From positions 1 through 64,000 of the IMG/VR virus record IMGVR_UViG_3300046660_000510: a DNA stretch of 64,000 nucleotides. One strand, 5' to 3'. The position numbers were made by a program, and so were the translations under genes. Source of the DNA: a virus. The notes under the pieces are model-generated. The model was not told the origin of the DNA, did not search any database, and worked only from the letters and a program-made list of their open reading frames with translations. Below, one piece after another: positions 44,106-52,819 of the stretch; the first letter of the stretch is position 1; the number at the start of each line of letters is the position of its first letter.

Positions 44106-45031
44106 CAGGCGGCCTGCCCTTCACCGGCGTCGGCCTGGACGGCCTGCTGCTTCAACTGGGCGATCCGGCGCGTCAGGAGGTCCTCGACACGCACGTCCAT
44201 CTCGCCGACCTTCACCGTCTCGTCCAGCAGACCGTGCTTCCGGGCGTCGGCAAGGTTCTGCTCACACGACAGGCGGTTCGACCAACCTGCATTGATCTTC
44301 CCCTTCAGTGCCTCCAGGGTCGTTCCGCCCGCCTGCTCCTGGCGGCGCGCGTCCTCACGCTGCTCCGCCGGCCCGGTCTGCTCCTGCTCCGGCGGGACGG
44401 TGTCCTCGGTGGGCTGCGATCCCGGCTCGGGCCGCACCGGGGCATCGTCCGGCTCCGGAAGCGGCGCCGCAACCTTCTCCCACTGCTCCGGCGGATGCGC
44501 GGCAGAGAAGTTGACCACCGGGGCCGGGGAGCCGTCGTTGTACAGGGACAGCCCGAACGCGTCCCCCAAGTGGGTAGCGGCCCGCTTGAACGCCTGAGAC
44601 GACGCGGTCTTCATCCCCATGTCGTGCGCGTCGGCCAGGTTCGGCAGGTTGTTGCCCGCCCCGGCCGCTTCGCCGTCCCAGTGCCCCAGCTCCCGTCCCT
44701 GCACGTCCTTCACGATCAGACGGACTTGCGCCCGGTACACGACCGTCCACTTGGAACGGTTCCCGTTGGGAGTCTCGATCTCCCTGACCAGAGCCAGCTC
44801 GCGGTTCTCGGTGTCGTAGCCGGCGAACCCGAACACGCGGAGCAGGTACCGCTTGATGTCCCAGGCCTGCATGTGCGCGAAGCCCTTGTCGTCCTTACCG
44901 ACACGCTTGGGGTCGACGGCCCGGTGCAGCAGCCGAAGCTGAGGCGCGGTGAAGCGGCTGACCTGGTTTTGGGTGTGCGGGGTGGGGCCCTCCGCCGTCG
45001 TGCTGGCGGGGGCCTCGGTGGCCGTGGCCAT
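44105..45031 (-). CDS. Rad52/Rad22-like (Sak) single-strand annealing protein
   Basis: FAHMQAWDIKRYLLRVFGFAGY..AHDMGMKTASSQAFKRAATHLGDAFGLSLY. Confidence 0.85.
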   Translation of the reverse strand: MATATEAPASTTAEGPTPHTQNQVSRFTAPQLRLLHRAVDPKRVGKDDKGFAHMQAWDIKRYLLRVFGFAGYDTENRELALVREIETPNGNRSKWTVVYRAQVRLIVKDVQGRELGHWDGEAAGAGNNLPNLADAHDMGMKTASSQAFKRAATHLGDAFGLSLYNDGSPAPVVNFSAAHPPEQWEKVAAPLPEPDDAPVRPEPGSQPTEDTVPPEQEQTGPAEQREDARRQEQAGGTTLEALKGKINAGWSNRLSCEQNLADARKHGLLDETVKVGEMDVRVEDLLTRRIAQLKQQAVQADAGEGQAA

Positions 45032-48397: not shown

Positions 48398-49261
48398 ATG
48401 GACCCCGAGGAACTGCTCAACGACTGGCTCGCCACCAGCGCCCTGCGGCCCTCCACCCGCGCCGAATACCACCGCGAAGTGAGCTCCTTCCTCACCTGGT
48501 GCGCCCGCCGGCCCCGGCCCGTCGACCCCATCGCGGCCCGACCCGCCGACATCGCCCAGTGGTCCCACGACACCTACCTCCGTGAACTCCTCGACGGCCG
48601 GCCCTTCGACGGACCCGACGCCCTCGGCTACCTCGCCGACCACCACCCCGACGCCGCCCGCACCCACGACCGCCGCATCACCGCCCTCACCGGCTACTAC
48701 GACGCCGCCACCGCCCGCCGCATCATCACCATCCCTCCCGACCTGAAAGTCCTGCGCTCCGGTGTCCCCCGGCCGCCCGGCGCCAAGAACCGGTTGACGC
48801 CCCGCGAACGCGCCGTCCTCCTCGCCTGCACCGGCGCCTGGGGACCCACCCGCTCGAAGCACTGGGAACGCGACCAACTGTGCGTCTACCTCCTCCTCGA
48901 GGGCCTCCGCCCGGCGCAGATCGTCCGCATCGACCGACGCCACCTCTACCCCCAGCCCGACGGCTCCTGGGACGTGCGCGCCCCCGACGACGCAGAGAAC
49001 GTCGGCAAAAAAATCACCCTGGACCCGCTCACCGGCGCGGCATTGAAGGCCTACCTGGCCGTACGCCTCGAGCCAGCCGACCCCGGCGAGCACACCCTCA
49101 TCCTCTCCAGCCGAGGAACCGCCACCTTCTCCCGCTGGCCCAACAAGCTCATAGGGCAGATCACCGCCACGCACCCGCTGCTCGCCGAACGCGACCCCGC
49201 CATCACCGCGGACGCCGTCGCCCACACGGGCCTGTGGGACACCCCCGGACAGGGCGACTAG
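48398..49261 (+). CDS. tyrosine-recombinase-like protein lacking the C-terminal catalytic motifs
   Basis: LRPSTRAEYHREV..FLTW (SAM-like domain), RDQL..LLLEGLRPAQI; ends at TADAVAHTG with no HxxR or Tyr. Confidence 0.7.
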   Translation: MDPEELLNDWLATSALRPSTRAEYHREVSSFLTWCARRPRPVDPIAARPADIAQWSHDTYLRELLDGRPFDGPDALGYLADHHPDAARTHDRRITALTGYYDAATARRIITIPPDLKVLRSGVPRPPGAKNRLTPRERAVLLACTGAWGPTRSKHWERDQLCVYLLLEGLRPAQIVRIDRRHLYPQPDGSWDVRAPDDAENVGKKITLDPLTGAALKAYLAVRLEPADPGEHTLILSSRGTATFSRWPNKLIGQITATHPLLAERDPAITADAVAHTGLWDTPGQGD

Positions 49262-50319
49262 GTCAGGTCGACCGTGGAGTTGTCGTCCCAGCCGTCCTCG
49301 ATCTGGAAGTAGCCGTTCATCGACCTCGAGTGCCGGGCCCACCCGCCCTGGTCGGCGATGACGATGGCGTCCTTGCCCTGCTTGCGGGCGGTGGAGGCGT
49401 GGCCGATGCGCAGGCTGTGGCCGGTCCAGGCGAGGTCGACGCCGGCGCGGGTGCTGATGCGTTTGATGGCGCGGGTGATGGAGTCGGGGACCATGCCGCC
49501 GGTAACGCGGCCGGAGCGGTGGATGCCGACGAACGCGGGCGCGTCCGGGGCCAGCCAGCGCGGGTCGGCCTCGGCGGCCATACGCTCGCGGTACGCCTTC
49601 CACGCTTGGACGGGGCAGATCTCAGGATCCTTCTGGTATCGGATCTTGGCGTCGCGGACGGAGTGCTTGGTCTTCCCGGTGAGGATGGAGATGACCAGGC
49701 CGCGCGGGTGCAGGGTGACGTCTCCCGCGAGCAGGCCGGCGGGGTCCTGGGCGCGGGCGGCGTAGTGGAAGCCGGTGAGGATGAGCGCCTTGTCGCGTGC
49801 GCCCGCCAATGTGTCGGGGCAGGCCCGTACGACGCGGTAGAGGTCGGGGACTTGGGCGGTGGATGCTTTGCCGCGGCCGCGGCGTTCCTTGTTCTGCAGC
49901 AGCTTGACGGTCAGGCCGTCGAGGGCGGCGCGCGCTTCGGCTTGGTCGTCGCGGCTGACGGTGACGTCTCGGTCGCGGAGTTCGACGACGGTTCCGGCGA
50001 GGATGGTGGAGGCCGAACTGGGGGCGTATCCGGTGCCGTTGGTCTGGCCTTGGCGGAGCATCCAGGCGACGTAGGCGACGAGCGCGCCGCGGGAGCCCTC
50101 GAGAAGTGGCAGGCCCTGGGAGCTGGTGAAGCGTTCCCACACGCGCCAGCTCTTGGTGTAGGTGTCGGTGGTGTTCTCGGGGGTGATCTCTCGTGCGACG
50201 GCGTCCGCGAGGTCTTCGGCCTGGGCGAGCCGGTGGGCAGTGTCGATACCGTGCCGGGCGGCCCACTTCTGGATGAGGGCCGCGCGTTCGGGGCTGGTGG
50301 TGGTGTCGAGTTCGGTCAC
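49258..50319 (-). CDS. Cre-like tyrosine recombinase
   Basis: GARDKALILTGFHYAAR, GKT, CPVQAW, TGHSLRIG, QGGW..S..MNGY. Confidence 0.9.
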   Translation of the reverse strand: MTELDTTTSPERAALIQKWAARHGIDTAHRLAQAEDLADAVAREITPENTTDTYTKSWRVWERFTSSQGLPLLEGSRGALVAYVAWMLRQGQTNGTGYAPSSASTILAGTVVELRDRDVTVSRDDQAEARAALDGLTVKLLQNKERRGRGKASTAQVPDLYRVVRACPDTLAGARDKALILTGFHYAARAQDPAGLLAGDVTLHPRGLVISILTGKTKHSVRDAKIRYQKDPEICPVQAWKAYRERMAAEADPRWLAPDAPAFVGIHRSGRVTGGMVPDSITRAIKRISTRAGVDLAWTGHSLRIGHASTARKQGKDAIVIADQGGWARHSRSMNGYFQIEDGWDDNSTVDLT

Positions 50320-51387: not shown

Positions 51388-51549
51388 ATGTGAGCTTATC
51401 GGGAACCATGCGAGGCGTTCCGGTCCAACGACCCGTCAGCGTGCCGCCGCGTTCGAGCCGTTCGATTATTGCCCCAGATCGATCCTAAGCTCGGGCCGTT
51501 CCGAGCGTCCGGGCACTTCGGCTCAGTGACGCACGTTCGCGTGCACCTA

Positions 51550-51587
51550 TTGACGCATGCGTTAAACCCTGCGACCATTAACGCATG
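51550..51587 (+). promoter_or_regulatory. promoter/operator of the RHH gene
   Basis: TTGACGCATGCGTTAA near-palindrome over a TTGACG -35; TTAACGCATG repeat overlaps the ATG. Confidence 0.5.
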
Positions 51588-51974
51588 TGGAAATCCGATG
51601 GCCGGAGGGGACGCCCCGTCGTGGGCCCCAAGGTAGAGACCCGGCTCCCTGAATCCGACCTCCAGAAGGTCGACGCCTTCGCGGCGCAGCACGACATGTC
51701 CCGGGCGGAAGCCCTCCGCCAACTGACCAGCGACGGTCTACTCCTTGCTGACGCCAGTACCCGAGAGACCATCGCACCGGACGCCGTTCAGAGCCAGAAG
51801 ATCGCGTCTGGCGCCGTCGAGTCCGGGAAGGTCGACCCGAACGACCCTCTGTTCGTACACACCCTGGTCGTGTGGGCATTGAAGAAGGTCGGCATGGGCC
51901 AGGAGGAAGCCGACCAGTACGCGACCGCCCATCAGCAGCACGCGGTAGACGCCTACCGCACCACCGAGAAGTGA
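51585..51974 (+). CDS. CopG/ribbon-helix-helix regulator
   Basis: RGRPVVGPKVETRLPESDLQKVDAFAAQHDMSRAEALRQL. Confidence 0.8.
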   Translation: MWKSDGRRGRPVVGPKVETRLPESDLQKVDAFAAQHDMSRAEALRQLTSDGLLLADASTRETIAPDAVQSQKIASGAVESGKVDPNDPLFVHTLVVWALKKVGMGQEEADQYATAHQQHAVDAYRTTEK

Positions 51975-51985
51975 GGACACCGACC

Positions 51986-52207
51986 GTGAGCAAGCCCATC
52001 AGCCTCACCACGATCTCGCTGTCCGACGCGCACTGGGTGGACCTTCTGACCACCGCGCGGCTCCACGCCTATCGAGAGGTTCGGGAGATGCCCAACGTGA
52101 CAACCGCGCAGTGTCAGCAGATCGTGGCGGCGGCCGTCGCTGGGGTTCGCACGCAGATCGAAGAGTGGGCCGCACAGCAGACCACCGACAGCGCCACCGA
52201 GCAGTGA
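51986..52207 (+). CDS. cassette ORF (73 aa)
   Basis: start and stop supplied by junction repeats. Confidence 0.65.
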   Translation: MSKPISLTTISLSDAHWVDLLTTARLHAYREVREMPNVTTAQCQQIVAAAVAGVRTQIEEWAAQQTTDSATEQ

Positions 52208-52218
52208 GGGCACCGGCC

Positions 52219-52353
52219 ATGGAGCAGGATGAACTGGGCGCGCAGCAGGAGGAATTGCTCCGGGACCTGGACGACGTCCTGGACGTAGAGGCAGGTCTGG
52301 AGGACCTGCTCCGCAGGCTCGGCCCGCCCGCCGACCGAACCACCGAGAAGTGA
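52219..52353 (+). CDS. cassette ORF (44 aa, acidic)
   Basis: start and stop supplied by junction repeats. Confidence 0.6.
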   Translation: MEQDELGAQQEELLRDLDDVLDVEAGLEDLLRRLGPPADRTTEK

Positions 52354-52364
52354 GGACACCGACC

Positions 52365-52571
52365 ATGGCGGACGCGCAACCGCAGCCCACCTCCGGCGGG
52401 AGCATCCAGATCGGAGAACCGTCGCAGCTTCAGACTTTCGCGGTCCGCACTCAGGCGGACTGGGCCGACGTCGAGATCGAGCACTATCAGCAGACCGGCG
52501 AAACGCCTCTCGCTCGACTGCACCGCGAGAACCTCGACGCGCTCCACGCCGACCGCACCACCGAGAAGTGA
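52365..52571 (+). CDS. cassette ORF (68 aa)
   Basis: start and stop supplied by junction repeats. Confidence 0.65.
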   Translation: MADAQPQPTSGGSIQIGEPSQLQTFAVRTQADWADVEIEHYQQTGETPLARLHRENLDALHADRTTEK

Positions 52572-52582
52572 GGAGCACGACC

Positions 52583-52759
52583 GTGAGTGCTGCCGCCTAC
52601 TCCACCTTCGCCACTGTTTTCGGCTTGATCGCATTCGGACACGGACTGCTCGCCTGGACCAACTGGCGGCGAGGGAAGCGTGGCGCCTCCTTCAACTACC
52701 TAGCCGCTGCTGCCGTGTTCTTCGCCGGGGTGGCCTCTTGGTGCGCCATGCTCGGGTAG
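52583..52759 (+). CDS. cassette ORF (58 aa, two TM helices)
   Basis: start in the last junction repeat; hydrophobic. Confidence 0.6.
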   Translation: MSAAAYSTFATVFGLIAFGHGLLAWTNWRRGKRGASFNYLAAAAVFFAGVASWCAMLG

Positions 52760-52784
52760 TCATGGGAGCGCAGCACGAACGCAA

Positions 52785-52819
52785 CGGTGCCCCGGCTGAG
52801 GAAAGCAGCCGGGGCACCG
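52785..52819. terminator. bidirectional hairpin
   Basis: CGGTGCCCCGGCTG-AGGAAAG-CAGCCGGGGCACCG, 14-bp stem between convergent genes. Confidence 0.7.

Follow-up and report, generated by a model that had tools for sequence, protein, structure and literature searches.

A stop-embedded Shine-Dalgarno linker joins reassorting small genes in arrays of Streptomyces phage-plasmids

The window analysed here is a stretch of viral DNA of 64,000 nucleotides, positions 1 to 64,000 of the IMG/VR record IMGVR_UViG_3300046660_000510. Five co-directional open reading frames (ORFs) are located on its plus strand within 51550-52819, and their products are 129, 73, 44, 68, and 58 aa in length. All five show coding-type GC content by codon position, with GC at the third position (GC3) of 0.78-0.85. 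The first ORF is a leader gene, and the four ORFs behind it are called cassettes here (Table 1). They are joined by four copies of a repeat, which are located at 51957, 52190, 52336, and 52554, just where a first-pass annotation of this DNA had placed them. The stop codons are at 51972-74, 52205-07, 52351-53, and 52569-71, and the next starts are at 51986 (GTG), 52219 (ATG), 52365 (ATG), and 52583 (GTG). As also noticed in the first pass, the unrelated proteins end alike (RTTEK, SATEQ, RTTEK, and RTTEK), and the next start comes after 11 nt at each junction. A repeat search grouped the four junctions as one 4-copy family with 63-100% identity over 51 nt. The junction core has no further copy in the 74,926-bp record, and the four copies are all on the plus strand. 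The 18-mer ACCACCGAGAAGTGAGGA has 5 matches in the window with 3 or fewer mismatches versus 0.04 expected, and 0 of 100 shuffles reached 5. The repeat is probably a standard intercistronic linker and not a recombinase site.

Table 1. Features of the cassette array and of two recombination genes in the window.
Feature	Position	Strand	Remarks
Rad52/Sak-type single-strand annealing protein, candidate for short-homology exchange	44528..44908	-	PF04098, 62 bits, E 2.7e-18
Cre-like tyrosine recombinase, divergent from the array, probably plasmid-prophage resolvase	49258..50319	-	PF00589, 29 bits
Operator-like inverted repeat, putative array control region	51549..51594		Two TTAACGCATG-type half sites overlapping the TTGACG word and the leader ATG
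Leader gene P0001, 129 aa, N-terminal RHH-like repressor domain, C-terminus RTTEK inside junction 1	51585..51974	+	phrog_4738
Junction 1: last leader codons, TGA embedded in extended Shine-Dalgarno, 11-nt A/C-rich spacer, GTG start	51950..51988	+	
Cassette 1, P0002, 73 aa, helical hairpin	51986..52207	+	GTG start 51986; upstream stop 51972-74
Junction 2, most divergent copy (SATEQ, GAGCAG, GGGCACCGGCC)	52183..52221	+	
Cassette 2, P0003, 44 aa, acidic, no family	52219..52353	+	Singleton among 61 families
Junction 3, near-consensus copy	52329..52367	+	Longest exact run in common with a junction of another element, 31 nt
Cassette 3, P0004, 68 aa, ORFan	52365..52571	+	
Junction 4	52547..52585	+	
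Cassette 4, P0005, 58 aa, hydrophobic, probable two-span membrane protein, last gene, without RTTEK tail	52583..52759	+	
Hairpin terminator between the array and a convergent minus-strand gene, 14-bp perfect stem, conserved GAGGAAAGC loop	52785..52819		I2

The junction is found in 33 GC-rich loci, which were ascertained via the core motif with one mismatch allowed in its 11 nt. They contain 121 junctions in arrays of 2-8, and 0-1 copies are seen on the opposite strand across the loci. The consensus of the 121 junctions is GCCGACCGCACCACC-GAGAAG-TGA-GGACACCGACC-ATG. Outside the core used for selection, conservation spans from about -22 to the ATG at +14 to +16 and then vanishes. The first-pass annotation had described a repeat of 32 bp; the repeat itself is real, and conservation covers ~38 nt, from -22 to +16 relative to the T of TGA. 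At the array ends, a half-junction (GAGAAGTGAGG, then directly the terminator) without a downstream gene is present in 10 of the 30 arrays. Concerted evolution inside arrays was considered and is a weak tendency at most (27 of 500 permutations). The 13-mer GAGAAGTGAGGAC is absent from the remainder of three host genomes of 7.5-11.9 Mb. This indicates that the linker is not a general ribosome site of Streptomyces. The linker is conserved at the nucleotide level and is restricted to mobile elements, and such descriptive statements on the linker family can be made with high confidence.

Cassette starts were assigned by a rule that takes the first ATG or GTG 8-22 nt past the stop. The 105 cassette ORFs that follow junctions in the 33 loci fall into 61 families, 39 of which are singletons, including all four cassettes of the window. 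They range from 30 to 298 aa, and the bodies of different families are unrelated. No two arrays are alike in content or order. Homologous cassettes from different loci form 86 pairs, and in 84 of them the 60 nt past both junctions show identity at the random level (~0.3). Body identity is 70% or more in 32 of the pairs, and 30 of these have unrelated flanks on both sides. Between the loci L006 and L007, a 293-nt junction-to-junction segment is 99.3% identical. Identity drops to 70% in the leader gene next to it, and the genes beyond its other end are unrelated. At both ends of this segment, the identity breaks inside the junctions. In the comparisons of L008 with L041 and of L008 with L015, one cassette is the sole shared sequence in 8-12 kb. 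Single genes have been reassorted with breakpoints inside the linker. The proposal from the first pass of an expression array that exchanges small unrelated genes at a standard junction is borne out. Two findings had been named there that would refute it, namely relatives with identical ORFs in identical order and ORFs derived from one gene by duplication, and neither is seen in the 33 loci.

The exact 18-mer is present in 10 other IMG/VR contigs, and a shifted 18-mer is present in 34 genome contigs, about 24 of them from Streptomyces. With a junction as the query, 24 Streptomyces plasmids are matched, mostly 85-93 kb in size and including pSAM1 (S. ambofaciens), pCQ4, pSLE1, and pSP90. pSLE1 is described as syntenic with the plasmid-phage pZL12 (PMC4487206), and pSAM1 gives its name to a phage-plasmid community (PMC7969092). 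The array is placed between the recombinase gene and convergent collagen-like tail-fibre genes in the window, pSAM1, pCQ4, pSP90, and CP108822. The source element is probably a Streptomyces virus living as a plasmid, of the pSAM1/pCQ4/pSLE1/pZL12 type. By blastn against GenBank phages, the whole array has no match and the junction alone has only 19-nt chance matches in Vibrio phages; therefore, the linker is not seen in the sequenced lytic Streptomyces phages of that collection. A literature search that did not cover the original pZL12 paper found no published description of the Streptomyces linker.

The cassettes are presumably accessory functions of the plasmid-prophages. Among the 61 family representatives, a single one is matched in Pfam (DUF6354), and none is matched in PADLOC or NCBIfam. 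Against PHROGs, seven families have matches, six unannotated and one a weak tail-fibre match (E 3e-4), which give no cassette function. When their tails are trimmed, the five ORFs of the window show no similarity to one another (best E 0.6). P0002 and P0003 belong to no Pfam or PHROG family. The AlphaFold2 model of P0002 has a pLDDT of 81 and consists of two helices, with low confidence in the tail, and it has no match in PDB with E below 2.9. Thirteen relatives of P0002 are found at 68-86% identity, and all keep xRTTEK-type tails. P0004 has no relative in a search of 5.8 billion proteins besides copies of the same element. The matches of P0005 to transmembrane families are weak in a profile search.

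The leader P0001 matches the PHROG family annotated as transcriptional repressor at its residues 4-52 (E 6.9e-10), and its match to Pfam RHH_1 is under the cut-off (E 0.12). The earlier assignment as an RHH leader is thus kept as far as the repressor family is concerned and is not confirmed for the Pfam domain. Among viral contigs, no relatives of the leader protein were confirmed. Leaders of other arrays are small DNA-binding proteins of other types: Phd/YefM in four arrays, HTH_17 in three, and a Cys-rich type. The leaders are interchangeable small DNA-binding proteins. The Phd/YefM leaders, which resemble antitoxins, are in L016 (3136-3531), L010, L018, and L026, and no Pfam toxin family was matched there.

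The inverted repeat upstream of the leader (I1, 51549-51594) has 17-nt arms with 82% complementarity and a separation of 12 nt. Its two half sites flank TTGACG, and one of them is inside the perfect palindrome ACGCATGCGT. A promoter overlapped by a palindrome had been described here. The inverted repeat is present, and a consensus scan for sigma-70-type promoters gave 0 sites at the array, including none inside it, so the promoter part of that description is not upheld. The repeat is a putative promoter or operator. A GACCAT hexamer is located 17 nt 3' of TTGACG, and with this spacing the transcription start would coincide with the leader ATG (51585). It suggests a leaderless, autoregulated mRNA of the leader.

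The hairpin at the end of the array, which had been called a strong terminator, is GC-rich with a perfect 14-bp stem and lacks a T-run. In 13 other loci as well, the array ends in this hairpin (for example, L007:1860-1904, L015:5305-5349, and L019:5170-5214). Compensatory changes are seen in 9 of the 14 stem pairs over the 14 loci, a count that leans to pairing because the sequences were chosen for stem potential. The hairpin is a conserved module across elements with different cassettes, and its near-invariant loop CTGAGGAAAGCAG again holds TGAGGA.

The junction has features of a translation signal. Its core, AGAAG.GAGG, is complementary to the CCUCCUUUCU-3' tail of 16S rRNA. The predicted pairing energy is -10.7 kcal/mol, which equals that of plain GGAGG, versus -6.8 kcal/mol for GAGG alone. 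The codons GAG AAG therefore compensate for the stop embedded in the Shine-Dalgarno (SD) sequence. The conserved flanks are G-poor and A/C-rich, and they modestly raise the predicted unpaired probability of the SD/start region, from 0.475 to 0.524 (61 of 84 junctions, p 1.7e-5). A start overlapping the stop as GTGA was ruled out: variants with spacers of 7-13 nt break the GTG frame and keep the SD-ATG geometry. With the stop inside an extended SD and the start 11 nt further on, ribosomes finishing one tiny gene could re-initiate on the next. From this geometry, it may be inferred that translation of the genes is coupled by termination and re-initiation. Any gene placed between two linkers would then be expressed from the repressor-controlled promoter of the leader.

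The same 20-38 nt are present at each gene boundary. Recombination between two linkers would therefore delete, insert, or swap exactly one gene and leave the operon intact. The exchange could be mediated by element-encoded annealing proteins of the Rad52 or RecT type, by host RecA, or by template switching, and it could occur within one element or between co-resident elements. It can be proposed, with a probability of about 0.6, that the linker with its stop-embedded extended SD both couples translation and offers short homology for recombination. Homologous recombination as the mechanism of exchange is plausible and fits the observed breakpoints. The best-partner junction in another element shares an exact run with a median of 27 nt, in comparison with 14 nt for random junction pairs. 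Redbeta is reported to require ~30 bp of homology, and mosaicism between diverged phages has been attributed to Rad52-like recombinases (PMC3945230).

Genes for annealing proteins were found in 6 of the 10 related phage-plasmids tested: the Rad52 type in the element of the window, pCQ4, G004, and G007, and the RecT type in pSAM1 and pSP90. The annealing recombinase is thus an exchangeable module itself, since related phage-plasmids bear either the Rad52/Sak type or the RecT type. Sak as an obligatory partner of the arrays was ruled out, as it is absent from pSAM1, pSLE1, a 639-kb plasmid, and G003. Sak-mediated recombination, one of the two mechanisms suggested in the first pass, is plausible and not universal.

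Several observations weigh against the proposal that the linker serves both translation and recombination. Little homology is available: exact runs between random junction pairs have a median of 14 nt, and no more than about 6% of the pairs reach 25 nt. For RecA such lengths are marginal, and for annealing proteins they are low. In pSLE1 and CP108822, no single-strand annealing protein of the three families tested was found. Junctions of one array differ from each other nearly as much as from those of other arrays (10.6 versus 11.0 differences, 27 of 500 permutations). No circle or deletion product was seen, the sequencing runs that contain the element being available as assembled contigs only. 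Accessibility gains only 0.05, and the SD does not surpass plain GGAGG in strength, so translation alone does not obviously need 38 conserved bases. Finally, the breakpoints at the gene boundaries could stem from illegitimate recombination and selection, with the linker kept for expression only.

The last point can be extended to an explanation in which the linker is purely an expression element, similar to the SAS of mycobacteriophages described below. Its conservation would then reflect recognition by the ribosome or by an RNA- or DNA-binding factor encoded by the element or the host, and the shuffling would be illegitimate recombination followed by selection. The position of the linker directly 5' of starts, the SD inside it, its single orientation, and its absence from host chromosomes are consistent with this explanation, and the same features are known for SAS (PMC3203893). 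The complementarity of the core to the 16S tail, the depletion of G at wobble positions, and the small gain in accessibility agree with it as well. It is more difficult to reconcile with the L006/L007 cassette, which is 99.3% identical between backbones of 70% identity and ends inside the linker on either side. The terminal half-junctions and the copies of the junction in non-coding DNA are needless for expression. Moreover, there is no conserved partner gene, leaders are of at least four protein types, the genomic contexts differ, and the linker is used solely by the array genes of each element. Expression as the only role is therefore considered doubtful, though worth keeping in mind.

A dedicated factor might recognise the linker in Streptomyces mobile elements. 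It could be a translational operator, protein or RNA, that switches all cassettes at once, or the direct CACCGA...CACCGA words could be used by a recombination or template-switch machinery. Although this is improbable, it would, if true, make the arrays a gene-capture platform of actinobacterial phage-plasmids, a counterpart of the integron without an integrase.

The first-pass annotation compared the array to an integron and pointed to the Cre-like recombinase gene 1.3 kb away. That gene is indeed located 1.27 kb upstream, on the minus strand (Table 1). In a true integron-like system, the junction would be the site of this tyrosine recombinase and/or of its incomplete paralogue, and cassettes would move as circles. 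The layout resembles that of intI, Pc, and cassettes: a divergent tyrosine recombinase gene lies 0.1-2.5 kb upstream of the array in five elements (the window, pSAM1, pCQ4, pSP90, and contig 26 of G003), the cassette content is hypervariable, and half-junctions are at the array ends. As in integrons, promoterless small genes, mostly of unknown function, are arranged in one direction, vary in number, order, and identity, and are expressed from one end; the phage-plasmids share the tyrosine recombinase gene divergent upstream.

The junctions themselves are different from integron sites. No dyad or attC-like hairpin is present in them, and the sole inverted repeats of the region lie elsewhere. 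The four junctions of the window fold no better than shuffled sequences (z-scores of -1.59, +1.55, +0.19, and +0.09), and Rfam gives only two chance matches, both sub-threshold. In contrast to attC, the junction is conserved in sequence and not in structure. There is no attC-type imperfect palindrome and no attI, the first gene is a repressor gene, and the junction overlaps coding sequence.

Arrays are also found far from any tyrosine recombinase. Arrays of 4-8 junctions are on contig 8 of G001 and contig 1 of G002 (one a 464-kb contig and the other a 5.7-Mb chromosomal contig) and on the 639-kb plasmid NZ_CP109461. For ~145 kb to 2 Mb around them, no tyrosine recombinase reaches the Pfam cut-off, and on the 639-kb plasmid a sub-threshold match is located ~8 kb from the array. 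A second array on contig 26 of G003 is ~7 kb from the recombinase, and the gene near the array of CP108822 is annotated as "recombinase family protein" and not as a tyrosine-type integrase. A site-specific mechanism of the integron kind is decidedly improbable, and this part of the earlier interpretation is not supported. The arrays are integron-like in layout and outcome only, and the Cre-like recombinase is probably a resolvase of the plasmid-prophage.

The shared protein ends were suspected of being functional. If so, the C-terminal peptide (A)DRTTEK would be selected as a tag for degradation, localisation, or interaction, and the DNA repeat would merely encode it. The junction TGA ends 67 of the 78 internal cassettes, the last two codons are E and K or Q in nearly all junctions, and a tail of this type is kept by all 13 relatives of P0002. 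The pattern of conservation argues for constraint on the nucleotides instead. In the last 3-8 codons of the junction, C occupies 73-96% and G 1-13% of the wobble positions (background 50% and 33%), and codon positions 1 and 2 are less conserved than these synonymous sites. Conservation also runs 14 nt past the stop. The other 11 of the 78 internal cassettes terminate earlier, at a separate stop as much as 80 nt upstream of an intact junction, so that the junction DNA is retained behind them. In the P0002 family (14 members), the body is nearly invariant and the last seven residues, for which the structure model has low confidence, are the most variable part (TDSATEQ, INRTTEK, ADRAAEK, ANRIIEQ, and others). 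The last genes of many arrays, including P0005, have no tail. Because the wobble positions are kept best, junctions persist past own stops, and the tail varies within a family, the RTTEK tail is probably a by-product, which arises because the linker extends into the reading frame of the preceding gene. A selected peptide tag is very unlikely.

That the ORFs are diverged tandem duplicates, or that the repeat is a compositional or chance feature, is hardly conceivable: only the ends are shared, the cassette bodies of 30-298 aa have no similarity, the window has both a probable membrane protein and a soluble helical hairpin among its cassettes, no shuffle reached the observed count, and the motif is confined to arrays in multi-Mb genomes.

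Junctions are also found in other surroundings. In pSLE1 (L019:5018-5160), they are beside a Ku gene and HTH genes and not beside the recombinase and tail-fibre genes. The 78-kb Streptomyces contig NZ_JBIAFO010000026.1 (L035, L037, and L043) contains 13 or more junctions, distributed over at least two separate arrays, at ~52.6-55.6 kb and ~63.5-65.3 kb, and only the second adjoins a tyrosine recombinase gene. Eight junctions on the 464-kb contig (L046) and four on the 5.7-Mb contig (L022, chromosome) represent arrays outside phage-plasmids.

Rhizosphere metagenomes contain the same element in pieces (four runs, X4-X7, as assembled contigs). The sequencing runs listed for the element are DNA metagenomes, with no RNA run among them. 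They also contain contigs that match only the junctions, at 52326-52369 and 52531-52564. The flanks of these contigs are unlike the window, and one of them continues into a start resembling the 298-aa cassette family of L006/pSAM1. This suggests many further linker-bearing elements in the same rhizosphere habitat. A single joint of 52369 to 52790 was seen in metagenome contigs, and with only 24 nt on one side it is unusable as evidence for excision or deletion.

Among known systems, the PeSLs of T4-type phages and the SAS of cluster K mycobacteriophages appear to be the closest analogues of the linker, and the mechanism proposed for PeSLs would be the closest. PeSLs (Arbiol et al. 2010, PMC2839356; Comeau et al. 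2014, PMC4122927) are likewise conserved regulatory repeats. They separate small accessory genes, most of them orphans, within a hyperplastic region and bring expression signals for whatever lies between two copies. Recombination between such conserved regulatory cassettes flanking ORFans was proposed to delete or insert single genes (PMC2839356). Genes there are gained, lost, and replaced one by one exactly between repeats, and the same is seen here, for example in the 99.3%-identical cassette shared by L006 and L007. The two repeats differ in structure. PeSLs are ~100 bp, with a sigma-70 early promoter and a terminator stem-loop, and each gene is its own transcription unit. The Streptomyces linker consists of ~38 nt of stop, SD, and start inside one operon and reaches into the upstream coding sequence; no PeSL-type promoter, terminator, or stem-loop was found at the junctions. 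The mini-circles of PeSLs were demonstrated experimentally, whereas the Streptomyces arrays are known here from assembled sequence alone. The hosts of PeSLs are T4-like myoviruses and those of the linker are high-GC Streptomyces phage-plasmids.

SAS and ESAS (Pope et al. 2011, PMC3203893) are asymmetric like the linker and are located a few nt 5' of the starts of non-structural genes. They contain an SD with extended complementarity to 16S rRNA, sometimes enclose the upstream stop, keep one orientation, precede diverse gene families, and have no copies in the host genome. Their function is still untested (PMC12699233). SAS are 13 bp (GGGATAGGAGCCC), within 3-7 nt of starts, and 11-19 copies are dispersed over half a genome. 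The Streptomyces linker, in contrast, has the unrelated sequence GAGAAGTGAGGACACCGACC, its SD is 9 nt from the start, and it forms tight tandem arrays with a fixed 11-nt gap. It is ~38 nt long and extends 20 nt into the upstream ORF, and gene shuffling has not been described at SAS. The Streptomyces linker is an analogue of SAS and not a member.

Stoperators of cluster A mycobacteriophages (L5 gp71 sites) are 13-bp repressor-binding sites distributed genome-wide and identical to the operator of the early promoter. They are also asymmetric, in one orientation, and in short intergenic gaps beside stop codons. The linker differs in that it is confined to the array and is unlike the operator-like palindrome at 51549-51594. 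Conserved "linker" sequences at gene boundaries also belong to the modular theory that was put forward for lambdoid phages, associated with Susskind and Botstein (1978) and with Clark et al. (2001). In both cases, short homology at gene boundaries would provide the preferred crossover points that yield mosaics. The lambdoid linkers are sporadic and disputed, whereas the present consensus recurs beside dozens of unrelated genes across many elements.

The linker is probably a natural swap connector for single genes, and the arrays represent linker-mediated modular shuffling and not an integron. In dozens of Streptomyces phage-plasmids, plasmids, and chromosomal islands, genes of at least 61 unrelated families are bordered by one consensus. 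The debate on phage mosaicism, whether it arises at conserved linkers or by random illegitimate joining and selection, goes back to the modular theory and is described as still open (PMC3945230). Near-identical cassettes in diverged backbones, with their ends inside the linker, make this question directly testable in a tractable host, and in pSAM1 of S. ambofaciens ATCC 23877 an array of 8 genes (61,922-64,106) occurs together with a RecT encoded by the element. For scarless assembly and coupled expression of small genes in Streptomyces, the linker is a natural part that is already at hand. Moreover, a large number of tiny dark-matter genes can be recognised by it: a single one of the 61 families has a Pfam entry, and none matches a defence model.

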